IMG/VR virus record: IMGVR_UViG_3300001535_000005
Location: 1 to 55,849 of that record
Strand: one strand, 5' to 3'
DNA length: 55,849 nt
Origin: a virus
Lineage: Duplodnaviria; Caudoviricetes
Shown here: piece after piece, positions 62 through 29,808 of the stretch
Numbering within the stretch: position 1 is the first letter of the stretch
How the letters are laid out: each line of letters opens with the position of its first letter
The notes under the pieces: generated by a model
Seen by the model: the letters and a program-made list of their open reading frames with translations, nothing else
What the model was told of the DNA's origin: nothing
The model's database searches: none
Made by a program: the position numbers and the translations under genes

Positions 62-256
62 ATGCCCCACATCACCTTCAGCCACACGTCGTTCGCAGGT
101 CTGACCGTCTGGAAAACAGACGATGGCCGCTATCAGGCGAACCTGCAGCGCGAGCGCGGCGGTGCCTGGCACGTCTGCCACGGCGTGACCGCTGATGAAG
201 CTGTGGCTGCCGTGCTGGACCCCGCTCCCGTGGCGCTGCCACCCCCGCCGTATTAG
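62..256 (+). CDS. Hypothetical protein, C-terminus LPPPPY
   Basis: ORF directly after the promoter; shares the PPY tail. Confidence 0.7.
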   Translation: MPHITFSHTSFAGLTVWKTDDGRYQANLQRERGGAWHVCHGVTADEAVAAVLDPAPVALPPPPY

Positions 257-267
257 GACCGCACCAC

Positions 268-450
268 ATGACCGAACGCTGGCACCAGAACGGCTTCAAT
301 ACTTGGGAAGTGATCATAATTCGCAACGGCCCTGACGCGCAGGGGCACAACTACGTCGACGGACGCCACCAAATCCATGTCGCCTACCACGAATCGGCGG
401 AAGCCGCAGCCGCTGCCTGCGCGGAACACAACGCGGAATTGGCTCAATGA
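268..450 (+). CDS. Hypothetical protein
   Basis: AGGA RBS; ATGA overlap with the next gene. Confidence 0.65.
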   Translation: MTERWHQNGFNTWEVIIIRNGPDAQGHNYVDGRHQIHVAYHESAEAAAAACAEHNAELAQ

Positions 451-1643
451 TCCGCCTTTCCAATACGGCCACGCTTCACCATGCAGATTGTCGCGATGCG
501 CTCGCCAAGATGCAGTCTGAGTCGGTCGATAGCATCGTCACCGATCCGCCTTATGAACTGAATTTCATGGGTAAGGGTTGGGACAACACCGGCATTGCGA
601 ACGACCCAGCACTGTGGGCGGAGGTGTTCCGCGTGTTGAAGCCGGGCGGGCATTGCGCCGCGTTCAGCGCCAGCCGGACCTATCACCGCATGGCGTGCGC
701 GATTGAGGACGCGGGGTTTGAGATCCGTGATTCGCTGATGTGGGTGTATGGGACGGGCTTTCCGAAGTCGCTGGACGTGTCCAAATTCATCGACAAAATG
801 GCCGGCGTCGAGCGTGAGGTGATTGGCGCCCCCGCCACGCCCCTCGCCGCCGAATGGGAAGGGTGGGGCACTGCGCTGAAGCCAAGTTTCGAGCCGATCG
901 TGCTGGCGCGTAAGCCGCTGTCGGAAGGCACGGTCGCCGCCAATGTTATCAAATGGCGCACCGGCGCCATCAATGTGGGCGCGTGTCGCATCGGGACGGA
1001 AGGGGGCGGCACCAACTGCAACAACCGCGATGAAAACGGCAAGTGCCTCGGGCACAAAAACGCAGGTCGTAGCACGAGCGGCGAGACCTTCCACGGACCC
1101 GAAAGTGACGGCGCGCAAGGCCGATGGCCCGCCAACGTGGTGCACGACGGCTCGGATGAAGTAGTCGGGACGTTTCCGACAGCCGGCGGGCAGCAAGGGC
1201 GCGCAAAGATCGGTGGACCGAAGGCTGGTAAAATTTACGGCGATTTCGGCGAGAATTTCTCGAGCAACCCCGAGCCGCGTGGCGACTCCGGCTCCGCCGC
1301 CCGATTCTTCTACAGTGCCAAGGCATCCAAAGCCGACCGCAACGGCAGCAAGCACCCGACTGTCAAGCCGATCAGCCTCATGGAGTGGATATGCACGCTG
1401 ATCACGCCGCCCGGCGGGACGATCCTCGACCCGTTCGGCGGCTCGGGCACTACCGGCATCGCCGCCAGCAACAAGGGCTTCAGCGTCATCCTGTGCGAGC
1501 GCGAGGCGGAGTATGTGGCGGATATCAGGGCGCGCTTTAGCGGTTCGGTCCTTACCACCCGGCTGAACCTATCCGCCTTCAGGCGCGAACTGGCCATCGC
1601 CGAGCAGGTTGCCGCCCTTCAGTCCCGATTGGTCCGAGCATGA
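447..1643 (+). CDS. DNA N6-adenine/N4-cytosine methyltransferase (beta class)
   Basis: DPPY catalytic motif near the N-terminus; HPTVKP and LDPFGGSGTT SAM-binding motif near the C-terminus. Confidence 0.92.
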   Translation: MIRLSNTATLHHADCRDALAKMQSESVDSIVTDPPYELNFMGKGWDNTGIANDPALWAEVFRVLKPGGHCAAFSASRTYHRMACAIEDAGFEIRDSLMWVYGTGFPKSLDVSKFIDKMAGVEREVIGAPATPLAAEWEGWGTALKPSFEPIVLARKPLSEGTVAANVIKWRTGAINVGACRIGTEGGGTNCNNRDENGKCLGHKNAGRSTSGETFHGPESDGAQGRWPANVVHDGSDEVVGTFPTAGGQQGRAKIGGPKAGKIYGDFGENFSSNPEPRGDSGSAARFFYSAKASKADRNGSKHPTVKPISLMEWICTLITPPGGTILDPFGGSGTTGIAASNKGFSVILCEREAEYVADIRARFSGSVLTTRLNLSAFRRELAIAEQVAALQSRLVRA

Positions 1644-4291
1644 TGACTGCCACCACGAACGCCCTCACCTACTATTCCCAAATCGGCGCCGCGTTGTTCC
1701 CGATCCCTGCCGACAGCAAAGCACCCACCGGTATTATCGGCTCGTTCAAGCATGACCATTCCAAGGACCCCAAGCAGTGGGCTGCATGGTCCGCCGAGAA
1801 CCCCGGCTGCAACTTCGGTATCGTGGCGTTCGCGTCCGATCTCATCATTGTGGACATTGACACCTCCGGCGGTCCCGCTGGCCGCGCCGAGGCGTGGGCA
1901 CTGTGGTGCGACCTGTGCGCCGAATGGGGCGTCTCAGTCCTTGCACCCCATGTCCAGTCCGCCCGCGGCGGCTGGCACGTTTATATGACGGTGCCCGCCG
2001 GGACCGATGCGTCCGCCCTGCGCCAGCCCGACGCCGTCAAGTCCCGCATCAACATCCGCTGCGTCGGCTATACCGTCGCCGCCGGCAGCACGTTCCAGGG
2101 GCTGCCCTACGCGCTACTATCTGACGCCCCGCCGCACCCCGCCCCCGCGGCGCTGGTCGAGCATTGCACCCGCGCCGCGGCGCCCCGCACCAACGTCCTG
2201 CCCGGCACCCGCGACCGCAACGACGTCGCCGCGCTGCTGACATGGCTGCAGGAGCACGATGCGTTTGAAGCCTATGAGGACTGGGTCGGCATCGGCATGG
2301 CATTGAAGCTGGAATACGGCGACGATGGCTTGGACCTGTGGAGCCTGTGCCACGATGCGACCGTGGACGGCGACACCGAGAACTCCAAATGGCAGTCGTT
2401 CGCCACCGATCCGACCAGCCAGTCCGTGACCCTCTCGACGTTTCTGGACCGCGCCCATAAAATGGGTTGGAAAGGTCAGGTCCGCCGCTCGACCGCATCC
2501 ATGTTCGACGGTGTGGCTGCGATCGCTGCCGCCGCCGGCGCCAGCCTGTCGGGTACCCAGGGCGTCCCTATGATGGCAGGGCAGGAGGAATTGTCCCGCC
2601 TCGCCCTGCCGATTCTTGAGGACTTTTTACAGGCCACCGCCGACAGCCCGACCGCGCCGCTCGCCCGCGACTATCCGGTCCTGCCCACGGTGATGGAAGG
2701 GCACGGCCTGTACCGGACCATGAACGACTGTCTGACCCGCGTCGCCGCCATGTCCGAGCCAGACAACAAGTTCAAGCCCGCGCGCATCATCGACGTCCTG
2801 GTGGTGCTGTCGGTCCTGCACGCCGACGTGTTCGAGGCGGTCTGCCGCCGTTTAAGGACCCTCGGGCACACCCTGCCCGATCGCAAGGTGAAGCTCGGCG
2901 CCGCGAACCTGTCCGAGAAGATCGAACGTATCACCGTCACACAGGACCGCTGGGAATACGACATGAAGGGTGAGCCGCAGAGCGACAACAGCGACAACGT
3001 CGCCGTGCTGCTGGGGATACTTGGGCTGTCCATCCGCTGGAATGCGTGGCTGGAGCGCATGGAAGTCCAAGGCGGCATCGATGCTGACCTGCGCTGGTCC
3101 GCCTGGACCTACGTCGATGACGTCATCGTGGCCAAGCTGCGCACCCGCGCCAACCGCACCAAGACCCGCTTCCGGCCGGGCAAGGACTTCCTGTGGGAGG
3201 CGCTGCTGTCGATCGCACATGCCAGCACGGTCGACCCAGTGCTGGAGGCGCTGTCCGAACTCGAATCAGAATGGGACGGCACCCCGCGCCTGGCCGGCTG
3301 GCTGTCCGAGACCTGCGGCGTGGTAAATGACCCGTACCACCGCGCCGTGGCCCGAAACATCATTGGCGGCATGATCAAGCGCGCCCGCCATCCCGGTCAC
3401 AAGCACGACACCATGGCCGTGTTCTTCGGCTTCCAGGGGTCGGGCAAGTCCACGATGGCGGAGATCCTTGCCCTCAAGAAGGAATGGTTCACCGATACCG
3501 TTCTGCTCGGCGATGCCAGCAAAGAGTTAGTGCTGTCGCTGGCCGGCAAGCTGGTGGTCGAGATCGGCGAAATGGGCATGCGCGGCTCCGCCAACCCGAA
3601 CCACGTCAAGGCCATGATCTCCCGCACGGTCGACGCCGGCCGCACCGCCTACGCCCGCAGCGTCACGGAGCGGCCGCGTCGCAACATCTTCGTCGGCACC
3701 ACCAATGACGACGAGCCGCTGGTGGATCCCACTGGCAACCGCCGCTTCCTGCCCGTGCGCGTCGCCAAGGCGGTCAACCTGGACTGGCTGCGCGAGAACA
3801 TCGGCCAGTTGCTCGGCGAGGCTGCGCATCAAGAGGCACGGGGCGAGTCGTTCGACCTGCCGCGGGACGTTTGGGACGTGGCCGCGCAGCACCAGAACGC
3901 CGCACGCACCGAATCGGACATGGAGATGCTGTTCGGCACATGGTTCACCGCCGAGGGGTTGTCTTATATCACCGCCGAGGATGTGGTCTATCTCTGCAAC
4001 CTGTGCGGTTGGCGTAATGGCGGCGCCAGTGGCGGGCGCTCCGCGGTCCTAAAGCTGCTCGGCTTCCGCAACGAACTGACCACGCTGCACGGTCGCCGCG
4101 CCAAGGTCTGGGTGCGTGGTCCGGTCGAGCGGCCGGCGGACATCCCGCGGCTAGGGGCGCGCTACGTCCCCGAGGAGCAGCATGGGCGCCCCATCGTCCG
4201 CACCCGCGTCGAGGTGGACCTGACAAACCTGGCCAAGACTCCGGGGTTGCCAAGCCCACCAAGTACCGGACTGCCGTTGCCGCCGTATTGA
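1640..4291 (+). CDS. Bifunctional primase-polymerase + PriCT-2 + VirE/VapE-like helicase
   Basis: IVDID and GGWHVY prim-pol motifs; YEDWVGIGMAL (PriCT-2); GFQGSGKST Walker A; GTTN and DPTGNRRF VirE motifs; ends LPLPPY. Confidence 0.9.
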   Translation: MMTATTNALTYYSQIGAALFPIPADSKAPTGIIGSFKHDHSKDPKQWAAWSAENPGCNFGIVAFASDLIIVDIDTSGGPAGRAEAWALWCDLCAEWGVSVLAPHVQSARGGWHVYMTVPAGTDASALRQPDAVKSRINIRCVGYTVAAGSTFQGLPYALLSDAPPHPAPAALVEHCTRAAAPRTNVLPGTRDRNDVAALLTWLQEHDAFEAYEDWVGIGMALKLEYGDDGLDLWSLCHDATVDGDTENSKWQSFATDPTSQSVTLSTFLDRAHKMGWKGQVRRSTASMFDGVAAIAAAAGASLSGTQGVPMMAGQEELSRLALPILEDFLQATADSPTAPLARDYPVLPTVMEGHGLYRTMNDCLTRVAAMSEPDNKFKPARIIDVLVVLSVLHADVFEAVCRRLRTLGHTLPDRKVKLGAANLSEKIERITVTQDRWEYDMKGEPQSDNSDNVAVLLGILGLSIRWNAWLERMEVQGGIDADLRWSAWTYVDDVIVAKLRTRANRTKTRFRPGKDFLWEALLSIAHASTVDPVLEALSELESEWDGTPRLAGWLSETCGVVNDPYHRAVARNIIGGMIKRARHPGHKHDTMAVFFGFQGSGKSTMAEILALKKEWFTDTVLLGDASKELVLSLAGKLVVEIGEMGMRGSANPNHVKAMISRTVDAGRTAYARSVTERPRRNIFVGTTNDDEPLVDPTGNRRFLPVRVAKAVNLDWLRENIGQLLGEAAHQEARGESFDLPRDVWDVAAQHQNAARTESDMEMLFGTWFTAEGLSYITAEDVVYLCNLCGWRNGGASGGRSAVLKLLGFRNELTTLHGRRAKVWVRGPVERPADIPRLGARYVPEEQHGRPIVRTRVEVDLTNLAKTPGLPSPPSTGLPLPPY

Positions 4292-4293
4292 TC

Positions 4294-4322
4294 GTTGACT
4301 CTCCGTATAAACGATGTAGGTT
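4294..4322 (+). promoter_or_regulatory. Repeated operator/promoter (GTTGACTCTCCGTA ... TAGGTT)
   Basis: Copy of the genome-wide motif; ATG lies 7 nt after TAGGTT. Confidence 0.7.
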
Positions 4323-4329
4323 GACGGCC

Positions 4330-5199
4330 ATGGTGGCATTTTACAATGAGATTGATCCATATGCTGCACAGTGGTTGCGCAACCTTATCGCCGCAGGACA
4401 CATTGCGCCGGGCGTTGTCGACACTCGCAGCATCGTCGATCTCACGCCGGCCGACCTTGCAGGATTTACGCAGGTTCACTTCTTTGCTGGAATCGGCGGG
4501 TGGTCGCTTGCTGCGCGTCTCGCTGGATGGCCAGACGATCGACCGCTCTGGACTGGTTCATGCCCCTGCCAGCCATTCAGCGTTGCCGGCAAAGGTGCGG
4601 GGCAAGAGGACGTCCGTCACCTCTGGCCGGAGTTTCACCGCCTCATTGCCGGCTGCCGTCCCCCTGTCGTCATGGGAGAACAGGTTGCGGCAGCGGTTGG
4701 CAAGTCTTGGCTCGACGGAGTGTGTTCTGACCTGGAAGGAATCGGTTACGCCTGCGGGGCGGCCGTTGTCCCGGCTTGTGCCGTCGACGCGCCGCATCGT
4801 CGGGACAGATTGTGGTTTGTGGCCGACTGCGATGGCGCAAAGCAAGAACTCCGGGAGTTGCGATTTCAGCCGACAGATGGAAGTGATTTTCGGACAACGC
4901 GAAACGCCGAACGGCAAAAAATCGACGGCACTATGGTCGACGATCAGGGCGAGCGACGGGGCGAAGGGCGGACCGAATCAGAGTTTCGGAGCGGGCGGGA
5001 CGCCACTGCCGGCGCAGGCTTCTGGAACCCAAGCGAACTCGCTATCGGAGCAGACGGAAAAGCCCGGCGCGTTAAACCCGGAGTTCGTCTCTTGGCTCAT
5101 GGGGTTCCCGCCCGAGTGGGTAAACTGCGCGCCTTTGGCAACGCCATCGTCCCGGCTGTTGCGGCGGAAATCATAGGCGCCTATCTGGACTGCAATTGA
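4330..5199 (+). CDS. C5-cytosine DNA methyltransferase, large (alpha) chain
   Basis: FFAGIGG, GSCPCQPFS, EQV, HRRDR and GNAIVP motifs; motif IX is not in this frame. Confidence 0.9.
   Translation: MVAFYNEIDPYAAQWLRNLIAAGHIAPGVVDTRSIVDLTPADLAGFTQVHFFAGIGGWSLAARLAGWPDDRPLWTGSCPCQPFSVAGKGAGQEDVRHLWPEFHRLIAGCRPPVVMGEQVAAAVGKSWLDGVCSDLEGIGYACGAAVVPACAVDAPHRRDRLWFVADCDGAKQELRELRFQPTDGSDFRTTRNAERQKIDGTMVDDQGERRGEGRTESEFRSGRDATAGAGFWNPSELAIGADGKARRVKPGVRLLAHGVPARVGKLRAFGNAIVPAVAAEIIGAYLDCN
4346..5176 (+). CDS. Nested alternative-frame ORF: probable small (beta) chain of the C5 methyltransferase (true start uncertain)
   Basis: Same-strand +1 frame carries LWPT/LWST segments and LNPEFVSWLMGFPPEW (motif IX-like). 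Confidence 0.7.
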   Translation: MRLIHMLHSGCATLSPQDTLRRALSTLAASSISRRPTLQDLRRFTSLLESAGGRLLRVSLDGQTIDRSGLVHAPASHSALPAKVRGKRTSVTSGRSFTASLPAAVPLSSWENRLRQRLASLGSTECVLTWKESVTPAGRPLSRLVPSTRRIVGTDCGLWPTAMAQSKNSGSCDFSRQMEVIFGQRETPNGKKSTALWSTIRASDGAKGGPNQSFGAGGTPLPAQASGTQANSLSEQTEKPGALNPEFVSWLMGFPPEWVNCAPLATPSSRLLRRKS

Positions 5200-5230
5200 C
5201 CCACCCACCGCCGCGCCTTATTAGGCGACC

Positions 5231-5641
5231 ATGCCCTCCAAACGCCAAGTCCTGCGTCTGCTCGCCAATCCCACACCTGAGACCCTTTGGGAGCACCGGG
5301 ACGTCCTGATCGCCGCGCTGCGAGCCGATGTGCGCCGGGCGGAGCGGACCCAGGCGGACCGACAGTTCACCCGCAGCACGGTCGGCTGGGATCCACGGTT
5401 CGGCCCTGCCCTGATCTTTACCAGACCGTTCCGGCCGGGCTGGCGGGGAATGCCGCCGCGCTCGCTGTTCACGCTGTGCTTGGCGCTGGTCGAGCGTGAC
5501 GGGGTCGACACCTACCAAGGGTTGGCCGATCGACTCAATAGCCATGGCATACTGGTCAATGGTGTTAACCGGTTCACGGTCGCCAACCTGGCCAAATTGC
5601 TGGAACGGACTGAGGTTGCCAAGTTGCTGGCGACTGGCTAG
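5231..5641 (+). CDS. Hypothetical protein, possible recombinase-like HTH at C-terminus
   Basis: LADRLNSHGI...RFT...LAKLL pattern. Confidence 0.55.
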   Translation: MPSKRQVLRLLANPTPETLWEHRDVLIAALRADVRRAERTQADRQFTRSTVGWDPRFGPALIFTRPFRPGWRGMPPRSLFTLCLALVERDGVDTYQGLADRLNSHGILVNGVNRFTVANLAKLLERTEVAKLLATG

Positions 5642-5649
5642 GTTGGGCC

Positions 5650-5898
5650 ATGCGCCGCTTTGTACCTGCCATCCTGATGCTGTCCGGTCTTGCCCTGTTC
5701 CTTTGGCTCATGCCAGCTAACGGGCCGCCGGCTGCTCCAGCCGTGTCCACGGCCGACCGGATCCGTGCCCAGTGCCGGGTCGAGGCTTCCCCATCTAAGC
5801 GAGACCAGCAGGACTGCTACGACCGGCGCATCATGGCGCTGGCCGCAGAGCAGTTTGGGCGTGGGTACGATCAGCGTATGCGTGAGGCAGGTCGGTAG
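5650..5898 (+). CDS. Hypothetical protein with N-terminal TM/signal segment
   Basis: Hydrophobic N-terminus; two Cys residues. Confidence 0.6.
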   Translation: MRRFVPAILMLSGLALFLWLMPANGPPAAPAVSTADRIRAQCRVEASPSKRDQQDCYDRRIMALAAEQFGRGYDQRMREAGR

Positions 5899-5919
5899 CC
5901 AGTCAACAGTTATCCGCAA

Positions 5920-6495
5920 ATGTTGCGATTATCCGGTTAGGTCTACATTTAATCGCAGGTTCCCACTGTTGCTCATCAGCAACTCTGCCCCAACATTGCC
6001 ACATTTCCCCCGCGTGTAGCGCATAGGTCACTTTGCGATTAGGTGGCGGCTTTGGCCCTTTTGCGATTATGTGTTGTTGCGACCTGGCGCGGCTCGGTGC
6101 TTTGCGATTATGTGTTGTTGCGATTAAGTGGCGAATAGTCCCAAAAAGGTATTATAATGGCGAATGCAACCTATGCGGTATGAACCGTTGAACTTCAATT
6201 TTTTAGGCCGGTTCACTCGGTAAGTGATTGAGATCGCACAATAAAAAGGCCGTTTTGAAAAGTGAACCGGTCTGACGCCAAAAACACTTAGGACCGTTAC
6301 TATTATATACAGCTATGCAGTATTGTATACCCTTACTATTATACCACTAGCATTATTATAGTTGGTTATACTCTTACTCCCTATATATAAGTTCAGTGGT
6401 TCAGAACAGATCAAAACAATAGCATTTTCAAACACTTGGCGAATGAACCACGCATGAACTTTCCGCCCTTTCGACCGGTTCATCGGTTCAGCCCC
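5920..6495. other. Putative replication origin (iteron-like repeats plus AT-rich tract)
   Basis: TTGCGATTA x5; 23-mer repeated at 6060..6082 and 6101..6123; TGAACC/GGTTCA x7; AT-rich ~6295-6430; no credible ORF. Confidence 0.55.
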
Positions 6496-6537
6496 AAATG
6501 CACGGTAAAGTAAACAGCCATCCGAGCCAAAATAAAC

Positions 6538-6566
6538 GTTGACTCTCCGCATTGACGCTGTAAGTT
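6538..6566 (+). promoter_or_regulatory. Repeated operator/promoter
   Basis: GTTGACTCTCCGCA...TAAGTT, then ATG 6 nt later. Confidence 0.7.
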
Positions 6567-6572
6567 TGCACC

Positions 6573-6881
6573 ATGGAAAACGAAATAGCCCAGTCCTTCG
6601 TCCGCCAAGGGTTCGTCACACTTGACCCTGATGGGACGATGCGGCTCACACAGAGTTCCTGGCGCATCATGACCGCACAGCCGGTGATCCACTTCGTCGG
6701 GTTCAAGGACGATCGGTGGTGGAACGCCATTGCCGTGTTCGGCCGTCCTGACTTCGTGCACCGCCACTGGGACTACCATGCGGTCTCGGAGGTCTGCCCC
6801 GGCGACGTTGTGGTGTTCGCCTCGGGTGACGAGCATTCAACGCCCACCGTATTTGCCTACGACGACAGCGCCCACTTTTAG
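6573..6881 (+). CDS. Hypothetical protein
   Basis: ORF after the promoter; codon style matches neighbours. Confidence 0.7.
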   Translation: MENEIAQSFVRQGFVTLDPDGTMRLTQSSWRIMTAQPVIHFVGFKDDRWWNAIAVFGRPDFVHRHWDYHAVSEVCPGDVVVFASGDEHSTPTVFAYDDSAHF

Positions 6882-6898
6882 CAGCAGGAGCAGACAAC

Positions 6899-7219
6899 AT
6901 GACCAACGCAGACATGGACAACGTGATCGACCTGTCGCGGATGCGCCGGGCGGTCGAGGCCCGCGTCGCGGCGCGCAACACCGGCTCCGACATCACCAGC
7001 CGCGTCTACCTCGACCACCTCGATGGCCGCCGCTGGGCCAGCACGGGCTTCCTGCGCGGCACCGGCCCGACCGCAGCTTGGGAATGGATCGCCACCACCG
7101 TGGCGGCCGAACTGGACTGCAGCGAGGAAGAGGTGGGCTGCATGGAGTGCACAGAAGGTAACGACCTGGTCACTGTGGACGGCCTGCCCGTCTATCGTTG
7201 CCGCATAGTTTATTGTTGA
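6899..7219 (+). CDS. Hypothetical protein
   Basis: AGGAG RBS. Confidence 0.7.
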   Translation: MTNADMDNVIDLSRMRRAVEARVAARNTGSDITSRVYLDHLDGRRWASTGFLRGTGPTAAWEWIATTVAAELDCSEEEVGCMECTEGNDLVTVDGLPVYRCRIVYC

Positions 7220-7243
7220 CTTTCCGTATTGACGTTGTAGGTT
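7215..7243 (+). promoter_or_regulatory. Repeated operator/promoter
   Basis: GTTGACTTTCCGTA...TAGGTT. Confidence 0.7.
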
Positions 7244-7272
7244 GGCAACTATAGTAACAGGGGAACGACCAG

Positions 7273-7539
7273 ATGCGCGATACCACAAAGCTTTCACCGT
7301 TCGAGTTTCGCAGCTTGTTGCGCGGTGATATGGACCTTTCGAAGCTGCCCGCCGCTCTGGCGTCGCAGATCCGTGCCATCTGGGCGCGCATGGAGCGGCA
7401 GCAGGACCGCACCATGAAGCGCGAGACCAAGCACGCAGCGTTCGCAACCGCCGGCCTGAACGGCACCCGCGCCGTCGCGCGCCGGCTGCGGCAGATTGAG
7501 GCTGGGCAACTCTACCCGATCGCGCCGGTGTCGACATGA
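7273..7539 (+). CDS. Hypothetical protein
   Basis: RBS; ATGA overlap with the next gene. Confidence 0.65.
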   Translation: MRDTTKLSPFEFRSLLRGDMDLSKLPAALASQIRAIWARMERQQDRTMKRETKHAAFATAGLNGTRAVARRLRQIEAGQLYPIAPVST

Positions 7540-7754
7540 CCGCGCCCCAAAGGATCGAATGGCCCGCCGGGACGCGCGTGCGCTGTGTGACGGAGAATGG
7601 TGCGGTGCTGCTGCATCAGGGGTGTGAATATGTGACAGCGACTGGACCGTCCGATTCGAATTCTTTTGTCAGACTCTACGAGGTGGCCGGTACTTATCAC
7701 ATGCTTCGTTTCAAGCCGATCGTGCGTGCGCCCATGGGGCGCAGGCCATGCTGA
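7536..7754 (+). CDS. Hypothetical protein
   Basis: Coupled ORF. Confidence 0.6.
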   Translation: MTAPQRIEWPAGTRVRCVTENGAVLLHQGCEYVTATGPSDSNSFVRLYEVAGTYHMLRFKPIVRAPMGRRPC

Positions 7755-7858
7755 ACGCCCGCGCCATCGTCGTCCTGGTCTGCATCAGCCTGTTCGCGGT
7801 GGCGATGGGTATGTCAGCTAATACAAGTCAACAGATAGTAGCAACGAGGGGAAACTAA
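7748..7858 (+). CDS. Small hydrophobic protein (36 aa)
   Basis: Read by hand: MLNARAIVVLVCISLFAVAMGMS...; fills the gap between genes. Confidence 0.45.
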   Translation: MLNARAIVVLVCISLFAVAMGMSANTSQQIVATRGN

Positions 7859-7860
7859 TC

Positions 7861-8196
7861 GTGGAGACACAGTACGAGGTGGGACAGGCGCTCTATTTTG
7901 TCGGCACGCGTCGCTATAACAAGGAGCCGCGTTTCGTCTATATCCAAAAGGTCGGCCGCAAGTGGCTGCAACTGGATAATGGTAACCGCGTCGACATCGA
8001 GACGCTCACCGCTGATGGTGCGGGGTTCGTTTCGCCCGGTCAGGCATACTTGAACCAGGAAGTGTACAAGGCTCGGGTAAAACTGCAGAATGCGTGGGAT
8101 GCAGTACGAAGGCGAGTCGACGATGCGCGTTATGTCCCGCCCGACATGACCGTCGAGCGTATCAGTGAGGCTCTGACGCTGCTGGGGCTCGCATGA
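7861..8196 (+). CDS. Hypothetical beta-barrel-type phage protein
   Basis: GTG start with GAGGGG RBS; KVGRKW motif. Confidence 0.7.
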   Translation: METQYEVGQALYFVGTRRYNKEPRFVYIQKVGRKWLQLDNGNRVDIETLTADGAGFVSPGQAYLNQEVYKARVKLQNAWDAVRRRVDDARYVPPDMTVERISEALTLLGLA

Positions 8197-8480
8197 CGCT
8201 CCCCCTGATCGACTCACCACCCATCGTCACGTTCCTACCCACACCTGAGCAACTGCGGTTCATGCATTTTCACCAGCGTCAACTCGTCTCGTCATGGCGC
8301 TGGCTGATGAAGGAAACGCAACTGCGCGCCTTCAATGAGCGCGGGCACACCGCAACGTTGTCCAGGTACGAGGTCGCCGAACTGATCGACGCCGGCCTGA
8401 TGTTCAAAGGTGCCGGATGCGCCGATGTACACCTGACCTCATGGGGTCGGGATGCGTGCGCAGCAAAGGAGACCGTGTGA
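8193..8480 (+). CDS. Hypothetical protein (possible winged helix)
   Basis: Coupled ORF; ELIDAGLM...LTSWGR. Confidence 0.6.
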   Translation: MTLPLIDSPPIVTFLPTPEQLRFMHFHQRQLVSSWRWLMKETQLRAFNERGHTATLSRYEVAELIDAGLMFKGAGCADVHLTSWGRDACAAKETV

Positions 8481-8647
8481 TGCAGTGGCTTAGGATGGCG
8501 AGAGACGCGATCCGGACGTACCGGACTAACCCCTTAATCGCACCGTGGGTATTCATGGTGCAGCAGGATCGGATGACGCTGGTCGGGTTCATGCCGACAC
8601 CCAAGGTCTCCGGATCCAACGACAACGCACAGGAGCAGGTGACATGA
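8480..8647 (+). CDS. Hypothetical protein
   Basis: AAGGAG RBS; TGATG coupling. Confidence 0.55.
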   Translation: MQWLRMARDAIRTYRTNPLIAPWVFMVQQDRMTLVGFMPTPKVSGSNDNAQEQVT

Positions 8648-8880
8648 TGGTCCTGACAGCCCGAGGCTACCACGAGATCACCATATCGTCGGTGCCGCCG
8701 ACCGCCCATGCACGGCTCGACATTACGCCCGTTCGTGGTCCGCAGTTCAGCCCGACCGAGTTGGTGGAGTTGCTGCGCACCGCTCCCCTTCCCAACGAAC
8801 CCGCCCTGTGGGCGCGGCTGCAGGGTGTCCCCAACCGACTGTTCGGAACAGTCATCAACAGCGAAGGCGATGCGGTATGA
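8644..8880 (+). CDS. Hypothetical protein
   Basis: AGGAG RBS; ATGA coupling at both ends. Confidence 0.55.
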   Translation: MMVLTARGYHEITISSVPPTAHARLDITPVRGPQFSPTELVELLRTAPLPNEPALWARLQGVPNRLFGTVINSEGDAV

Positions 8881-9467
8881 GCGAGGCAGCAGGCGATGTG
8901 TTCGCCAAGTACATGATTGAACATGGTGTTGTGCAGACACCGGTCCGGCACGGCGACTGGATGCAGACCGCGACCGGGCGGCAGTTCTGGCCGTTGGATC
9001 CGCACCCCGAGGACATCGATATCAGGGACATCGCCGCGGCGTTGTCGAAGCTGTGCCGCTACGGCGGGCACTGCCATACCTTCTACAGCGTGGCGGAGCA
9101 TTGCGTGCTCGCTGCCCGCGCGGCGCCGCATGAACTGAAACTGACCACACTGCTGCACGATGCAAGCGAGGCGTACCTGTCCGACGTCATCCGCCCGATC
9201 AAGTCGCATCTGACCAACTACCACGCGATCGAAGCGACGCTTGAACAGATAATCGCAAAGCGGTTCGGGTTGCGGTGGCCGATGCCGGCGGAGGTGAATC
9301 GCATCGATAATGCTATGCTGGCTGATGAACGTAACCAGGCAATGCGGGCACCACCGGCTGACTGGAATCTGCCCGAGCCACCGCTGGGAGTGGCGCTGCG
9401 CTTCTGGGGACCGGGCACCGCCGAGCGGGAATTCCTGGATGCATTCTACGAGTATGGCGGCAAATAA
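8877..9467 (+). CDS. HD-domain phosphohydrolase (YfbR/YfdR-like 5'-deoxynucleotidase)
   Basis: RYGGH, YSVAEHC and LLHDASEAYLSD motifs. Confidence 0.88.
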   Translation: MSEAAGDVFAKYMIEHGVVQTPVRHGDWMQTATGRQFWPLDPHPEDIDIRDIAAALSKLCRYGGHCHTFYSVAEHCVLAARAAPHELKLTTLLHDASEAYLSDVIRPIKSHLTNYHAIEATLEQIIAKRFGLRWPMPAEVNRIDNAMLADERNQAMRAPPADWNLPEPPLGVALRFWGPGTAEREFLDAFYEYGGK

Positions 9468-9469
9468 CC

Positions 9470-9498
9470 GTTGACACTCCGCATAAACGTTGTAGGTT
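9470..9498 (+). promoter_or_regulatory. Repeated operator/promoter
   Basis: GTTGACACTCCGCA...TAGGTT. Confidence 0.7.
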
Positions 9499-9514
9499 GG
9501 CACAAATAGGAACG

Positions 9515-9697
9515 ATGATTATGACCCAGCCCCATTGTGCCGCCCGCCCCACCAGCACCGGCGAGGTGCGCTGCGCCAAGTGCCGCATCCTGGTCGACAG
9601 TGAGGCGGACCTGGTGTGCCCTTGCGCTCCCGCGCCGCCGCTGGTGCCAGAGCCGGAGCAGTACGTATCCGCGCTTGCTCCAAACTATTTGCGTTGA
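9515..9697 (+). CDS. Small Cys-rich hypothetical protein
   Basis: CAKC ... CPC; AGGA RBS. Confidence 0.55.
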   Translation: MIMTQPHCAARPTSTGEVRCAKCRILVDSEADLVCPCAPAPPLVPEPEQYVSALAPNYLR

Positions 9698-9721
9698 CTT
9701 TCCGTATTTACGTTGTAGGTT
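9693..9721 (+). promoter_or_regulatory. Repeated operator/promoter
   Basis: GTTGACTTTCCGTA...TAGGTT, then ATG 6 nt later. Confidence 0.7.
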
Positions 9722-9727
9722 TACATC

Positions 9728-9829
9728 ATGAACCGCTTTCATAGTTACATCTACCTCCTGAACCTGTTGCTCGGCGCCGGTGTGCCGTGGGGCGAAGCTG
9801 ACACGATCGCGCGGGAGTTAGGGCTGTGA
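9728..9829 (+). CDS. Small hypothetical protein (33 aa), probably leaderless
   Basis: Read by hand: MNRFHSYIYLLNLLLGAGVPWGEADTIARELGL. Confidence 0.5.
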   Translation: MNRFHSYIYLLNLLLGAGVPWGEADTIARELGL

Positions 9830-9984
9830 AACCGCCCCGGAAGAACCTTTGTCGCTGCAGGACCTTTTGCCTTGAAGATACGGCTGCGACTGGTCGGGTC
9901 TGTCGCCTCGAGCATAATGTCACCAAGGTTGTTGTCGTCAAGCGTCGCACCAAACCACTTCCTGCTGTGGAGCCTAAGGTATGA
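9826..9984 (+). CDS. Small hypothetical protein (52 aa)
   Basis: GTGA and ATGA coupling at the two ends. Confidence 0.45.
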   Translation: MKPPRKNLCRCRTFCLEDTAATGRVCRLEHNVTKVVVVKRRTKPLPAVEPKV

Positions 9985-10301
9985 CAACACTTTATCGCAC
10001 CCCGAACATCATCATAGATGCACATGAATGGCATGCAACGGTCCGATACAAGGCCGGTCGGACGCTGCTGCAGTATCGCTGGCGACCGCTGTCGGGCCAG
10101 CAATACCAGTGGCTCCCGATCACGTCCTGGGTCGGTCCGAAGCCGAAGGGGTTGAGCAAGCGGTTCGCCAAGTACCGGCGCCACATTGACCTCGCGATGA
10201 GCAGTGAGTCACGGCGACGGGAAGCTGCTGCGCTGGTGCGGGCTTTGCCGACCGGGACCATGCTGCGCAATGTGGGCAAGCCATTGGAGGTGGCGGCGTG
10301 A
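9981..10301 (+). CDS. Hypothetical protein
   Basis: GGAG RBS; coupled ORF. Confidence 0.65.
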   Translation: MTTLYRTPNIIIDAHEWHATVRYKAGRTLLQYRWRPLSGQQYQWLPITSWVGPKPKGLSKRFAKYRRHIDLAMSSESRRREAAALVRALPTGTMLRNVGKPLEVAA

Positions 10302-10429
10302 CCGTACACCAAGCAGCCCTAGCCGCCGGCGCCACGGTCCTTGGCGACCCTCCGCACTACCTGATGACGGCAGAGCAGTTGGCGCGGCTGGTCGAGTTGC
10401 TGCAGGCGCCACCGCCTCCGCCTTATTGA
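10298..10429 (+). CDS. Small protein (43 aa), C-terminus APPPPPY
   Basis: GGAGG RBS; GTGA coupling; MTVHQAALAAGATVLGDPPHYLMTAEQLARLVELLQAPPPPPY. Confidence 0.65.
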   Translation: MTVHQAALAAGATVLGDPPHYLMTAEQLARLVELLQAPPPPPY

Positions 10430-10456
10430 AAATAAATGGCGACTCTGCGTTTTGGT

Positions 10457-10485
10457 GTTGACTCTCCGTATTGACGTTGTATGTT
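10457..10485 (+). promoter_or_regulatory. Repeated operator/promoter
   Basis: GTTGACTCTCCGTA...TATGTT. Confidence 0.7.
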
Positions 10486-10519
10486 GGGTCCAACGAAACG
10501 CGCAGCACGGAGCAAGCAA

Positions 10520-10816
10520 ATGACTGACCGCAACGAAGTTTACGCAGTCGCCAAGACCCTTAACGCAAAGATCGCAACCCTCAAGTCTGGCGCAATGATC
10601 AATCAGAAATACGGCCACGAGATCGACGGTGGATACGGCAAACTGGAAACCGCCACCGATGCGATCAAGCCCCTCGCCCGCATGGTGCACTTCTTGCGTC
10701 ACGAAGCCCTCACGGTCAGCGTCAACGTGGGATCTTACGATTTCGCCCTCCGCAACCTTGACCGCGCGGACATGCTGGTCGACCAGATCGGTTTAATCGA
10801 AGGAAGGGTCGCATGA
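10520..10816 (+). CDS. Hypothetical protein
   Basis: GGAG RBS before ATG 10520. Confidence 0.7.
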   Translation: MTDRNEVYAVAKTLNAKIATLKSGAMINQKYGHEIDGGYGKLETATDAIKPLARMVHFLRHEALTVSVNVGSYDFALRNLDRADMLVDQIGLIEGRVA

Positions 10817-11022
10817 TGGGGGACTTCCCCCTTCCTTGGTGTGTCGGCCCGTATGGAGATATATGGGTCGCCGCTGACGTCGAGGTTCGCGAGGGCAAGT
10901 GGCATGCAACCTGCGCCGAGCCGCGTATCGTGGTCACCATGGCGGCGAAGAACCGCGACCTCGCCGAGTTCATTGTCCACTCCGCCAACGCGCAGATGTC
11001 CCCACCACCCCCACCGTATTGA
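10813..11022 (+). CDS. Hypothetical protein, C-terminus SPPPPPY
   Basis: LPW...AEFIVHSAN pattern common in small phage proteins; ATGA coupling. Confidence 0.7.
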   Translation: MMGDFPLPWCVGPYGDIWVAADVEVREGKWHATCAEPRIVVTMAAKNRDLAEFIVHSANAQMSPPPPPY

Positions 11023-11026
11023 TCCC

Positions 11027-12652
11027 ATGACCATCACACTCCGACCGAACCAGATAGCCGCAGCCGACGCTGTCGAGGATGGCTGGCGCGCCGGCATCCT
11101 GCGACCATTGGTTGACTCGTGCGTCGGCTCGGGCAAGTCGCTGACCATCGCCGAACTGGCGCTCCGCGCCTTCGCCCGCGCCGAGCGTAGCCTGGTATTG
11201 GCGCACACGCGCGAACTGGTCGAGCAGAACGCCGGTGCCTGTCGCGCCATGGGGCTGCAGACAGGCATCAATGCGGCTGCGCTCAAGGAACGCTGCTGGC
11301 GCGCACCGGTGATCAGCGCGGCGATCCAGTCCATCTATAAGCACGCGCATTCGTTTGGTCCGATCGGCGACATCTTCATCGACGAGTCGCACCTGCTACC
11401 GCACAGTGAAACCGGCATGTATCGGGAGTTGTTGCGTGCATTCCCCAATGCGCGGGTGGCAGGGTTCAGCGGCACCGTGTTCCGACTGCAAGGCGGTTCG
11501 CTGGTCGAGGGCGAAGGCGCGCCGTTCGACAAGGTCGTGTATCGCTACAGCATCATCGACGGGATCCGTGACGGCTACCTGGTGCCCGCGTTCTCGGCGC
11601 CGGCCGACGATAAAATCGACGTCACCAAACTCAAGACCAAGCAGGGCGAATTCACCGGCGAATCACAAGACGCGCAGATGATCGCGCTGATGGATAATCA
11701 CATCGCGCAGATGCTGCACCATGGGCGCGACCGCCGTGCGTGGCTGGTGTTCGAGGCATCCACCAAGGCTGCGAAGGCGATGGTCGCACGTCTCAACGAA
11801 TGGGGCATCCCGACCGGGCTGGTGCTCGGCGAGACCGCGGCGCCGGAGCGGTCGCAGACGATCGCAGCCTATCGCGCGGGGCGCCTGCGTGCCCTAGTGA
11901 ACGTCGCGGCACTGACCACGGGTTTCGACGTCCAGGAAGTCGACATGCTCGTCATGCGGCGCAAGACCAAGTCGCTCGGGCTATACATCCAGATGACCGG
12001 CCGGCTGCTGCGCACGATCGGCGGCAACATCGCGGCATCGATAGGAGCAGGCAAGCCAGACGGCATCGTGCTGGACTTCGCCGGCAATATCGACGAGCAC
12101 GGCCCGCTCGACTTCATCCGTCCGAAGGACACGGTCGCGCGCCTGATCTCGTGCGAGAATTGCAACAAGCGCGTCGCCGCGGCTGCGGTTAAGTGTTGGT
12201 CCTGCGATGAACCGATGACAAAGCTGTGCCCGGCGTGCCTCTGTTCGGTGCAGAAAGGTGTGATGGATTGCCCCGAGTGCAACTACGACATGCGCGTCCA
12301 AGGTGCGGCGGAACCAAGGAAGGCACAGGCGCTGCTGGACACGCCATCGGGAGCGGCGCTGATCAGTTCGTTCAAGCCGCGATCGGCACTGGACGGCGGC
12401 TGGGTGCCGGTGCGGCGCGCGTGGGATACGGGACTGCTCGACGACGTCGAGGGAGTGCGATGGGTGCTACCGGCCGCGCTGCTGGCACATGCAGCGGATG
12501 CGCGGTGGGTGCGCGGTATGGACGGGGCTGTCGAGGCGATCCTGGTGCCGAACGGTTCTGCGCGGGGGAGTGTGCGGCAGTATGCGGCTCGCGATGGGTC
12601 AATGCTGGTGGTGCCGATGCCTTCGCAAATACCTGTTGACTCTCCGCATTGA
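11027..12652 (+). CDS. SF2 DEAD/DEAH-box helicase with C-terminal zinc ribbons (RadD/YejH-like)
   Basis: LRPNQ, GSGKS, DESH, TGFD and QMTGRLLR motifs; four CxxC pairs. Confidence 0.92.
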   Translation: MTITLRPNQIAAADAVEDGWRAGILRPLVDSCVGSGKSLTIAELALRAFARAERSLVLAHTRELVEQNAGACRAMGLQTGINAAALKERCWRAPVISAAIQSIYKHAHSFGPIGDIFIDESHLLPHSETGMYRELLRAFPNARVAGFSGTVFRLQGGSLVEGEGAPFDKVVYRYSIIDGIRDGYLVPAFSAPADDKIDVTKLKTKQGEFTGESQDAQMIALMDNHIAQMLHHGRDRRAWLVFEASTKAAKAMVARLNEWGIPTGLVLGETAAPERSQTIAAYRAGRLRALVNVAALTTGFDVQEVDMLVMRRKTKSLGLYIQMTGRLLRTIGGNIAASIGAGKPDGIVLDFAGNIDEHGPLDFIRPKDTVARLISCENCNKRVAAAAVKCWSCDEPMTKLCPACLCSVQKGVMDCPECNYDMRVQGAAEPRKAQALLDTPSGAALISSFKPRSALDGGWVPVRRAWDTGLLDDVEGVRWVLPAALLAHAADARWVRGMDGAVEAILVPNGSARGSVRQYAARDGSMLVVPMPSQIPVDSPH

Positions 12653-12663
12653 TGTTGTAGGTT
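12635..12663 (+). promoter_or_regulatory. Repeated operator/promoter
   Basis: GTTGACTCTCCGCA...TAGGTT. Confidence 0.7.
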
Positions 12664-12686
12664 TGCGCTATTGGTAGCAACAGGAG

Positions 12687-12887
12687 ATGACAATGGCGGA
12701 TGGATGGAACGAAGCGTTTCCTAGATTGCTCGGTGAACTCTATCGAAAGGGTGCGCGCGATCAAGAGTTTCGTGGAATTGAGCCTTGTCCATATTGCTGC
12801 AATGGCCAGCGAACAGGATTGCCGGGCAACGCTTGTGAAAACTGCATGAACACCGGGCTTGCAGACCCCACTGCAGTCGCACCATGA
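12687..12887 (+). CDS. Small Zn-finger-like hypothetical protein
   Basis: CPYC...CENC-x-x-TG; AGGAG RBS. Confidence 0.6.
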   Translation: MTMADGWNEAFPRLLGELYRKGARDQEFRGIEPCPYCCNGQRTGLPGNACENCMNTGLADPTAVAP

Positions 12888-13180
12888 CCCACTCCCTCAC
12901 CCAGATCCTCCAACTCTCCGACGCCGGCCACACGCCCGCGCAGGTAGCCACCGCCGTTCCCACGAGCCTGTCAACGGTCTATGCAGTGCTGCGCACCCAC
13001 CGCCCCGCCCGGCCCCGCGCGCCGCGCACGCGCACTGGAGAGAAGCGGCGACTCATCGAGGGACTGCTATCGCGCAAGTGGCAGCCGGTGCGGATCGCGA
13101 CGGTTTTGGGGGTGTCCCCGCAATATGTGTATCGTATAGTGGCGGAGCAGCCACCAGCACTACCACCACCGCCGTATTAG
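12884..13180 (+). CDS. Tandem HTH DNA-binding protein, C-terminus LPPPPY
   Basis: Two HTH-like segments (QVATAVPTSLSTVY; IATVLGVSPQYVYRI). Confidence 0.75.
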   Translation: MTHSLTQILQLSDAGHTPAQVATAVPTSLSTVYAVLRTHRPARPRAPRTRTGEKRRLIEGLLSRKWQPVRIATVLGVSPQYVYRIVAEQPPALPPPPY

Positions 13181-13191
13181 GAGCCAGCCAA

Positions 13192-13395
13192 GTGACCGAC
13201 AAGTACAATGATGGTTACACTCATGAGGCTCTGCATACCGTCTATATCATAGGCGATATGTGGGAGCGTCACGTTGTCGATACCCAATGTGTTGAGGAAT
13301 ACCCGGATATTAAAGATGCGGTCGAACGCGCCAACCAGGCGATTCAGTCCGTTTATCAGTTGATCGGCCAAAAGCTCCACTCGGACGAGGGTTAG
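13192..13395 (+). CDS. Hypothetical protein
   Basis: AGGAG RBS, GTG start; lower GC. Confidence 0.65.
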   Translation: MTDKYNDGYTHEALHTVYIIGDMWERHVVDTQCVEEYPDIKDAVERANQAIQSVYQLIGQKLHSDEG

Positions 13396-13430
13396 GGCTT
13401 TACCGCTGCCGCCTTATTGAGGAGCCTGAG

Positions 13431-13724: not shown

Positions 13725-13740
13725 GCACCTCCACTTTTAT

Positions 13741-13770
13741 GTTGACTTTCCGCATAAACGGCGACATTGT
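13741..13770 (+). promoter_or_regulatory. Repeated operator/promoter
   Basis: GTTGACTTTCCGCATAAACG. Confidence 0.65.
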
Positions 13771-13796
13771 GCATCAACCAACCAGGGAATGCACAA

Positions 13797-15373: not shown

Positions 15374-15433
15374 CCGCATAATTGCGGAGAGTTGACAACG
15401 GGGGCCGCTTGTGGCATGTTCGGGTTAGGCGTG
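15365..15433 (+). promoter_or_regulatory. Dyad operator plus putative late promoter 1
   Basis: GTTGACTAACCGCA-taat-TGCGGAGAGTTGAC; TTGACA-N17-CATGTT; near-duplicate at 29698..29766. Confidence 0.7.
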
Positions 15434-15448
15434 CAAAAGCGGCCCCAA

Positions 15449-19189: not shown

Positions 19190-20252
19190 TCTCTCGACCA
19201 ACGAACGGCTGATCGACCTTTATATGGAGCGGGCACTTGACCTGATCCGCTTGGAGGCCGGTACCCGCGACAAGGTACTGGTTTTCATCGACCAGCTTGA
19301 ACGCGACATCGTCGCGGCACTGGCCAAGGTTGACCCGACCGGAACGCCGGATGGGGCAAAGCAGCGCAAGCGCCTGACCGAACTGCTCGGTATCATCCGC
19401 GGTACGATCAAAGCGTCATACCGCGACGTGGCCACGCTGATGGCCAGTGAGATCCGCGAAGTTGCCGACCACGAGGCGACCTGGACTGGTCAGGCACTCA
19501 ACACATCGATGCGGGTATCGTTCGCCGACGCCGGTGTCACCCGCGAATTCCTAAGCACACTGGTCTCGGACGTTCTCATTCAAGGCGCCCCAACCAAGGA
19601 CTGGTGGGCGCGGCAAGCCGGTGGCCTGGCCGAACGCTTCACCGACCAGATGCGAACCGGCATCGGTATTGGCGAAGCGAATTCAAAATTGATCGAACGC
19701 GCCCGCGCGACAATGGACGTCAGCCGGGCCAGTGCGGAACGCCTGGTACGCTCTTCGGTACAGACGGCAGCGAACACCGCACGCGAGGCGATGTACGCGA
19801 AGAACACAGACCTGATCGCAGCGCTGAAGTGGTCTGCGACGTTAGACACCCGAACGACTATCATGTGCCTCGCACGCGACGGCCACACTTACTCCTGCGA
19901 TGACGGACACGCCGCCAAAGACGGCGGCCCACCATGGCTGCAGGGACCGGGCAAGCTGCATTGGGGCTGTCGCTCCACCAGCGTGCCAGTCCTCAAAAGC
20001 TGGCGCGATCTCGGTATCGACATGGACGAGGTGCCGCACACGACGCGCGCATCCATGGACGGCCAAGTGCCGGCCGAACAGACATTCGCGCAGTGGCTGA
20101 AGAAACAATCACCCGAGCGTCAGGACACGCTGCTGGGCAAGGGCAAGGCCGAACTCTACCGCGCCGGCAAGATTTCAGTGCGCGACCTGCTCGACCAGAA
20201 CGGGCGCCCCCTCACCACCGAACAACTGCGCGCCAAGGCTGCGCAGAAGTAA
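19146..20252 (+). CDS. Minor head protein (MuF/SPP1 gp7-like)
   Basis: WSATLDTRTT..C and HWGCRS motifs. Confidence 0.9.
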   Translation: MANPLLPTLPTLPTDLSTNERLIDLYMERALDLIRLEAGTRDKVLVFIDQLERDIVAALAKVDPTGTPDGAKQRKRLTELLGIIRGTIKASYRDVATLMASEIREVADHEATWTGQALNTSMRVSFADAGVTREFLSTLVSDVLIQGAPTKDWWARQAGGLAERFTDQMRTGIGIGEANSKLIERARATMDVSRASAERLVRSSVQTAANTAREAMYAKNTDLIAALKWSATLDTRTTIMCLARDGHTYSCDDGHAAKDGGPPWLQGPGKLHWGCRSTSVPVLKSWRDLGIDMDEVPHTTRASMDGQVPAEQTFAQWLKKQSPERQDTLLGKGKAELYRAGKISVRDLLDQNGRPLTTEQLRAKAAQK

Positions 20253-20294
20253 CCCTGCCGGCGGGACGCCGGTTCTAACAGCGAGATGCTGCAA

Positions 20295-25876: not shown

Positions 25877-25882
25877 TGCTGG

Positions 25883-25914
25883 GTTGACTTTCCGCAATTA
25901 AACGGATAGTTTGC
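25883..25914 (+). promoter_or_regulatory. Dyad operator/promoter
   Basis: GTTGACTTTCCGCA-atta-AACGGATAGTTTGC. Confidence 0.65.
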
Positions 25915-26002
25915 AATCTGCCGCTGGGGATGCAAGTCGCCCCTAGTACCCACGGTGTCGGAGTCCGGCGCGCGGTGGGGTTTCTTCTAGGGGAACCGCA
26001 GC

Positions 26003-29766: not shown

Positions 29767-29808
29767 AATTAGCCCCTACATTGTTCGGACGCGCGAGGTC
29801 ATATTAGC

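Follow-up and report, generated by a model that had tools for sequence, protein, structure and literature searches.

The wiring of different phage proteins to one partner through a short motif shared at their ends is a known principle, and it is by such motifs that phages link their replication, their transcription, and the takeover of the host with a small number of hubs, among them the sliding clamp and the single-stranded DNA-binding protein (SSB). The late-transcription proteins of phage T4 and the T4 polymerase dock on gp45 by terminal motifs. According to a study of the Mor/MuC family, MuC, the late activator of phage Mu, uses terminal motifs of the QxDLF type to dock on the clamp of its host, the C-terminal one reading QPDLF; the family shares clamp-binding motifs with a minimal DLF core, and the authors state that T4 follows the same strategy (PMC12867686). 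Acidic tails serve a similar purpose: according to the Enc34 SSB paper, all SSBs of prokaryotes and phages are characterized by such a tail, and that of the T7 SSB is the contact to both polymerase and primase-helicase (PMC5686142), and the T7 helicase-primase is also described as having a docking tail, the tip of which mediates replisome contacts (PMC8472574). Here we describe a terminal motif of another kind, a C-terminal tail, mostly a run of prolines, that ends in Pro-Pro-Tyr directly before the stop codon (the PPY tail) and recurs on unrelated early proteins of a temperate soil phage. The phage is represented by the IMG/VR virus record IMGVR_UViG_3300001535_000005; the window analyzed is this whole record, which is 55,849 bp long, has a 50-nucleotide (nt) terminal repeat, and is rated 100% complete. 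The PPY motif is real and non-random, is conserved as a peptide, and is interchangeable with other tails. It may be a short linear docking motif that brings functionally different phage proteins to one putative common partner, a reading that we credit about as much as we doubt. Of the three mechanisms that a preliminary description of this DNA had proposed (a degron, a docking tail, and a ribosome-pause device), docking to a common hub is, by comparison, the best supported.

Five open reading frames (ORFs) of the window carry the tail, and each stands where the preliminary description had placed it, with the end that it had given (Table 1). As had also been claimed, the tails are confined to the early rightward region (62-13180, + strand), with none on structural genes. 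They end a 64-residue early protein, the primase-helicase (Pfam PF09250, E 2e-21; PF05272, E 5e-58), a 43-residue protein, a 69-residue ORF whose stop lies 4 nt before the superfamily 2 (SF2) helicase gene (11027-12652), and a helix-turn-helix (HTH) protein whose gene is the last regulator-like one before the structural module. Four of the five tails hold runs of 4-5 consecutive prolines, and that of the primase-helicase holds PP only. The gene calls, 89 proteins in all, were made with a simple ORF scorer of our own in place of a standard gene-calling program; with the last three residues of these proteins drawn at random, the mean expectation is 0.0099 PPY-ending proteins, against the five observed. 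PPY precedes the stop at 6 of 1167 stops in the three + frames versus 0 of 1499 in the three − frames, and when the window was shuffled 300 times with its dinucleotides preserved, PPY-stop words numbered 0.21 on average and never more than 2, against the six observed. Four of the five tailed genes have homologues elsewhere; for the 69-residue ORF no homologue was present among the fetched relatives, and its support as a gene comes from our own crude coding score only.

Searches with the primase-helicase and the SF2 helicase brought up about 20 related viral or metagenomic contigs and a contig of a metagenome-assembled genome (MAG) titled Afipia sp.; nine relatives were fetched whole, and no close cultured relative of the phage was found. 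With the window record designated G000, PPY tails are present in four related contigs, one in G001, four in G002, two in G007, and six in G008, partly on orthologues of the tailed window genes (Table 1). Of the 426 proteins called in the five tail-bearing records, 15 end in P.?PY; of the 470 called in ten tail-less relatives, 0 do. The G002 orthologue of the 43-residue protein, 77% identical, ends EVPPPPY, and the G004 orthologue has no tail. All 18 tails of the five records stop at Tyr; similar ends with 3-4 extra residues are exceptions (the G001 orthologue of the 43-residue protein, P0156, and P0214). Tails follow gene orientation, and the one G008 tail on the opposite strand ends its own ORF.

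The codons beneath these residues are not constant. The preliminary description had taken the variable Pro codons in the window to argue for selection on the peptide, and this extends to the 18 tails, where all four codons occur (CCG 43, CCT 14, CCA 12, CCC 8). It had also remarked that Tyr is always TAT; this is true of all six copies in the window, but TAT and TAC each occur nine times over the 18 tails, so that the reason it offered for a nucleic-acid role falls away. Stop codons vary as well (TGA 9, TAG 6, TAA 3), and in the three tailed HTH orthologues each codon column of the tail varies synonymously only. Since codons vary and amino acids stay, selection acts on the peptide and not on the DNA. 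On the rival account, the C-rich word with its TAY-stop would act as a DNA or RNA signal, be it an RNA structure or a linker at gene junctions or for recombination, with the peptide as a by-product. To its credit are the uniform TAT of the window, one copy of the word that lies out of frame, two G008 copies that stand 17 nt apart in different frames, and the junctions 233-275 and 13157-13199, which are 79% identical over 43 nt, past the stop and into the start of the next gene. Yet the amino acids of the 18 tails stay the same while the Tyr codon, the stop, and third positions in general vary freely, the non-coding strand of the window holds no copy, all copies but one end a real ORF, and both G008 frames are long, conserved, and coding; we regard this account as scarcely credible.

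The out-of-frame copy, the sixth in the window, is intact and lies within an 18-codon stop-to-stop frame that has no start codon. One T fewer in GGTTAG (13390-13395) would place it in frame with the 67-residue ORF just upstream. It is not an assembly slip, because contigs of two soil-metagenome runs match the stretch exactly, with 0 differences and 0 gaps, both runs being from one study, either being possibly the source sample, and rare variants being hidden in contigs. Most simply, the sixth copy is a tail lost very recently through a one-base frame change in 13192-13395. A programmed frameshift into the tail at 13397-13420 was considered and rejected; no slippery site was seen, the frame needed is +1, and no RNA data set was listed as containing the stretch.

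The closely spaced G008 pair belongs to the C5 DNA methyltransferase gene. In the copy of this gene in the window, frame 0 spans 4330-5199 and a second long ORF in the +1 frame spans 4346-5176; the frame 0 product corresponds to phrog_363 (E 4e-82) and the +1 product to phrog_1008, 'DNA methyltransferase' (E 2.5e-24). In all five related genomes the +1 frame runs without a stop over 272-341 codons, the third frame over only 60-124. Frame 0 presumably carries methyltransferase motifs I-VIII and X, and the +1 frame a motif-IX-like LNPxF..WLMGxP, and the gene either encodes two proteins in overlapping frames or specifies one enzyme whose synthesis requires changes of frame. In G008 both overlapping long frames end PPPY, 17 nt apart; since both are long and conserved as coding, two in-frame tails argue for the peptide, and the double tail fits a peptide tag wanted on both products, with a 17-nt duplication as its obvious origin.

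Wider searches left the set of tail-bearing genomes as it was. No further tail-bearing relative emerged from a helicase-alignment search of metagenome contigs (5 loci) or from searches of IMG/VR with P0112 and with two primase alignments (A1 and A6), and PPY tails are likewise missing from G146, G050, and G045, three prophages from the host family. A DNA-level scan of IMG/VR for PPPPY-TAT-TGA returned at least 119 stretches. Among the 80 loci fetched there was one match per contig; an upstream open frame of at least 60 residues stood within the 400-nt flank in only 18, and none of the 80 was a relative of the phage. The scan is uninformative on distribution. Other C-terminal motifs were noticed in this group. 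The end ..SPPLAP(V) occurs on unrelated proteins of relatives (G002 6397-7212, − strand; G007 9779-10831 and 18994-20508, + strand; positions given in reversed contig coordinates), and the SF2 helicases have a common ..VPMP.. end.

Three protein families show the tail as an exchangeable module. Among 120 listed primase-helicase homologues of 184 (query included), 22 end in P.?PY, 44 in other Pro-rich sequences, many of them GLPPLPxR-like (R-type), and 54 in neither; two more homologues end ALPY. On a FastTree phylogeny of 115 homologues, built after rows shorter than 600 residues were dropped and the last 40 residues were excluded, the Y-tail state changes at least 10 times, and well-supported branches make 8 of these changes unavoidable; Y-type tails are found as sisters of R-type ones. 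Three of 13 HTH family members continue past the conserved ..YVYR[IV]L helix end into the tail, where the others have a stop or a few residues, and two of three database homologues are tailed (P0002 and P0004). The richest variation is found in the family of the 64-residue protein encoded at 62-256. A profile search of 1.84 billion representatives gave 115 proteins, or 113 after removal of two obvious false hits, with the common core ..LTLW.T..GWQA.L....GGW.V...TP.EA... Of their ends, 26 are P.?PY, 5 PPPPC, 15 otherwise Pro-rich (e.g. PPCPVGLP), 36 of the form x-[VILA]-F-[DGEAQ] (GVFD, DIFG, SVFD), 13 otherwise acidic-hydrophobic (EDLIG), and 18 unclassed; PPPPC occurs on the orthologue in the tail-less G005 and G003 and in the Afipia contig. 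An AlphaFold2 model from 111 sequences (mean predicted local distance difference test score, pLDDT, 84) has strands at residues 13-18, 24-29, and 36-41 and a helix at 44-52. This protein matched neither a Pfam nor a PHROG family; its fold gave no PDB match at E <= 0.001, and its Atlas neighbors were unnamed or below the bar.

A single core with varied tails at one place presents the pattern of exchangeable docking motifs. The PPY tail is a detachable extension of domains that are complete without it; gains and losses are frequent, and other C-terminal tails can take its place. That homologues might lack the tail had been named in the preliminary description as a point that would tell against a tag; many do lack it, and the pattern fits a labile, exchangeable motif, not noise. 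Its central proposal, a peptide-level tag on unrelated early proteins, is borne out by the presence of the tail on orthologues and non-orthologues in four relatives, by the synonymous changes, and by the attachment of the tail to complete domains.

A further C-terminal tail of this phage bears on function. The gp2.5-like SSB of the window has a Pro-rich C-terminal stretch of about 60 residues that contains no Asp or Glu and ends ..PPGLPSFPAPAH. In the 120 homologues listed of 167, the last 40 residues have a median of 0 Asp/Glu and 16 Pro, with tips of the form LPP[FLI]PxR in 71 of 120 and ..FPxx in 35 of 120. In this SSB clade a proline-rich tail has thus taken the place of the acidic docking tail, and, as all listed homologues are proline-tailed, the phage group already has proline-rich C-termini at the usual site of a docking tail. 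The R-type primase tails resemble the SSB tip. The SSB tail is probably the strongest argument, though an indirect one, that proline-rich C-termini serve as docking elements in this phage group. The non-acidic SSB tails of the whole clade contradict the textbook description of SSBs and merit a study of their own.

We favor docking because of the swapping of the PPY tail with a hydrophobic-Phe tail and because of the proline-rich tail of the SSB. A flexible proline-rich stretch with a terminal Tyr and a free carboxylate, appended to complete domains, would recruit the primase-helicase, the HTH regulator beside the late genes, small accessory proteins, and, in a relative, the DNA methyltransferase. 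By analogy, the partner that we infer could be a hub of the replication fork, for example the sliding clamp of the host or a factor associated with SSB, and the tail would not be a destruction mark; the mix of tail carriers resembles the client lists of sliding clamps. Since the Phe-type tails of the 64-residue family resemble the DLF core, PPPPY may replace them functionally for another host or hub. In an extended form of this proposal, possible but on balance doubtful, the R-type (LPPFPxR) tips of the SSB and many helicase-primases and a Y-type (PPPY-COOH) tip that could be attached to any protein, be it a regulator, a methyltransferase, or a small host-takeover protein, would together form a proline address code that recruits proteins to a single polyproline-reading hub at the replication fork.

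Several observations weigh against docking. PPY tails match neither the clamp consensus QL[SD]LF nor acidic SSB tails, the runs of 4-5 prolines are also strong ribosome-stalling sequences, and the out-of-frame copy and the G008 copies 17 nt apart are open to a DNA-level reading as well. The PPPPC variant means that an aromatic last residue is not required. Close relatives share the replication genes and yet have no tail, which makes the tail dispensable or replaceable. The search for a hub also gave little. Among 50 window proteins scanned against Pfam, all encoded in the early and leftward regions, no WW or SH3 family reached E <= 0.01. Only a 33-residue peptide and an exported RlpA-like protein co-occur exclusively with the tails, and neither is a plausible hub. 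The same Pfam scans turned up no clamp gene, and an Atlas search with the ORF at 52209-52856 for a clamp-like fold gave nothing.

The host was approached through sequence matches. A primase relative 59-63% identical lies in the Afipia MAG, with weaker matches in 15 of 201 genomes of that family; a tail protein gave matches at <=50% identity in 20 of 401 genomes. The Afipia MAG contains no PPPY-stop word, its two pattern matches both ending TGG. The RlpA-like (DPBB_1) exported protein is encoded near the integrase (46140-46466, − strand); its full-length gene is present only in the tail-bearing G000, G002, G007, and G008, with a partial match inside a 421-residue protein of G004, and it may mark a shared host clade. 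The phage DNA polymerase was considered as a hub and rejected. At its position relatives hold one of two polymerase-sized proteins without mutual BLAST match, the phrog_1252-type polymerase in G000, G005, G006, and G009 and another protein of about 680-690 residues (unannotated here) in G002, G004, G007, and G008, and neither tracks the tails.

The exact C-terminal position of the tail is also typical of degrons, of which ssrA, MuA, and lambda CII are examples. The tail might expose early proteins to proteolysis at a set time, the enzyme being either a host AAA+ protease or a SprT-like zinc protease of the phage, whose gene lies in the block of head genes and encodes invariant H77, E78, H81, H83, and H96; as part of the late module, this protease could remove early proteins still bound to DNA ahead of packaging. 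Early or regulatory proteins make up the carriers, most of which bind DNA, and the tailed C5 methyltransferase of G008 is an enzyme that forms covalent DNA intermediates. What motivates this rival is a loose co-occurrence: the SprT-like gene is present in all four assessable tail-bearing records (G000, G002, G008, and G001) and in one of four complete or near-complete tail-less ones (G009, but not G004, G005, or G006). Such a distribution among related genomes is weak and confounded by ancestry, and G009 has the protease yet no tails. Moreover, PPY resembles no degron known to us, the alternative tails of the 64-residue family look like docking motifs, and a replicative primase-helicase would be an odd target for rapid destruction. 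A predicted complex of the SprT-like protease with the 43-residue tailed protein scored 0.00 against a mark of 0.32, with controls not run, and has no bearing either way. On this evidence we consider destruction marking unlikely.

Translation offers a third role for the proline run. Polyproline stalling and its relief by EF-P are established (PMC11611912, PMC13602936), and an EF-P-dependent stall just before the stop might tune the yield of the tailed protein or initiation on the next gene. Such a device is suggested by the runs of 4-5 prolines in four of the five window tails and by a next start codon 4-12 nt after the stop in about 7 of the 18 tails, as read by eye from the flanks. The invariant feature, though, is the terminal Tyr (or Cys) with a PxP pattern rather than the proline run: the primase ends LPLPPY, that of G001 PPLPY, and many homologues PPLPY or ALPY. 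In the window the distance between the stop of a tail and the next start is anywhere between 4 and 91 nt, several tails stand at the end of a transcription unit, five of the 18 tails are followed, again as read from the flanks, not by a coupled gene but by a promoter-like repeat, and homologues hold non-proline tails at the same place. A translational device is therefore quite improbable, and docking remains the reading that we prefer.

The remaining features of the genome are listed in Table 1. The rightward early operon contains two DNA methyltransferases, the Prim-Pol/VapE primase-helicase, the SF2 helicase, and the HTH protein, and the structural genes, including a P22-type coat gene, lie downstream of it. 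The promoter-like repeat, 45 nt long and laid out as a TTGAC.. box, a conserved spacer, and a TAGGTT-like box, occurs ten times, always on the + strand, with most copies in the early region. Several of them lie directly 3' of a PPY-tailed gene, and in relatives a similar TTGACTCTC.. element follows tailed genes. A 65-nt element has two copies (15376-15440 and 29709-29773), 80% identical, upstream of the terminase block and the tail-gene block; these are candidate late-promoter or regulator sites.

Table 1. Tailed genes and other features of the window, and PPY tails of related contigs
Feature	Position	Strand	Remarks
64-residue early protein	62-256	+	ends ..VALPPPPY; tail LPPPPY at 236-253, stop 254-256
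Primase-helicase (Prim-Pol + PriCT_2 + VapE-like helicase), 883 residues	1640-4291	+	ends GLPLPPY; tail 4271-4288
43-residue protein	10298-10429	+	ends ..QAPPPPPY; tail 10409-10426
69-residue ORF	10813-11022	+	ends ..MSPPPPPY; tail 11002-11019
98-residue HTH protein	12884-13180	+	ends ALPPPPY; tail 13160-13177; Pfam HTH_23, E 4e-10
Out-of-frame tail copy	13397-13420	+	intact ALPLPPY + TGA, +1 frame; reads ..RALPLPPY, stop 13418-13420
67-residue ORF	13192-13395	+	TAG stop 13393-13395, directly before the out-of-frame tail copy
gp2.5-like single-stranded DNA-binding protein	51159-51971	-	Pfam PF10991, E 4e-9; PHROG 'Gp2.5-like'
SprT-like zinc protease, 118 residues	22696-23052	+	in the head-gene block
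Integrase and excisionase-like gene	44212-45511	-	
DNA polymerase	48619-50607	-	phrog_1252 type
DUF2800 exonuclease		-	
Rightward early operon	55343 through 62 to ~13.7 kb	+	
45-nt repeat copies	4286-4330, 6530-6574, 7207-7251, 9462-9506, 9685-9729	+	
45-nt repeat copies	10449-10493, 12627-12671, 13733-13777, 25875-25919, 39483-39527	+	
G001 tail			primase tailed; 43-residue orthologue ends ..PPPLPYSLP
G002 tails			55-residue protein upstream of methylase; primase-helicase; orthologue of 10298-10429; HTH orthologue
G007 tails			1 called and 1 uncalled ORF
G008 tails			4 called and 2 uncalled ORFs

Literature searches, judged by titles and abstracts, brought up no paper on C-terminal PPY or polyproline tails of phage proteins, nor on the spread of such a motif over unrelated early proteins, on Y/C/Phe tail swaps, or on a proline-tailed SSB clade. 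As a new motif class, polyproline with a terminal Tyr would point to an unrecognized peptide-reading surface in the host or the phage. The tail could serve to group small orphan early proteins for annotation and is a direct bait for finding its target, and the natural swaps of PPPPY, PPPPC, and GVFD on one core are a ready-made experiment.

Set beside known systems, the tail shares traits with several of them. With the C-terminal degrons ssrA, MuA, and lambda CII it has in common the extreme C-terminal position. The likeness to EF-P-dependent stalling sequences lies in the three or more consecutive prolines of four of the five window tails; the conserved features exceed a proline run, as seen from the PP of the primase and the PPLPY of many homologues, and no fixed geometry relates the tail to a downstream start. 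The acidic tails of the T7 type end in Phe. The PPY tail resembles those of SSBs and of T7 gp2.5 and gp4, as far as the cited accounts describe them, in being a presumably disordered C-terminal extension that follows a folded core and offers a terminal aromatic residue with a free carboxylate, and here, too, the helicase-primase and, in a variant of its own, the gp2.5-like SSB have conserved C-terminal tips. The tails differ in that the last 8 residues of none of the 18 include an acidic residue, the body is proline-rich, the last residue is Tyr or Arg, and the motif has spread to regulators and small accessory proteins. From the clamp motifs the tail is set apart by its residues, PPY containing no Q, L, or F and the consensus QL[SD]LF taken from PMC12867686 occurring in 0 of the 18 tails. 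In arrangement there is a likeness to Mu and T4, as described in that source, for there a short end motif on different phage proteins of replication and late-gene activation leads to one ring-shaped hub, and here the tail is found on a primase-helicase and on an HTH gene beside the late module; the 36 Phe-type ends of the 64-residue family (x-[GSD]-[VIL]-F-[DG]) resemble the DLF core and partly match the consensus. In other settings, PPxY is a ligand of WW domains and PxxPxR of SH3 domains, both of the polyproline-II type. Four of the five window tails end PPPY and so resemble the former, and the LPPY of the primase fits the alternative form L-P-x-Y; some PLPY or ALPY ends of relatives do not fit, and nearly every tail here stops at its Tyr, a position that a PPxY ligand does not require. 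The SH3 pattern is matched by tips of the SSB and of R-type primases (LPPFPGR, GLPPLPPR). If true, the proline address code would be the bacterial-virus counterpart of PPxY/WW or PxxP/SH3 recognition, standing in the place of acidic-tail and clamp-motif systems.

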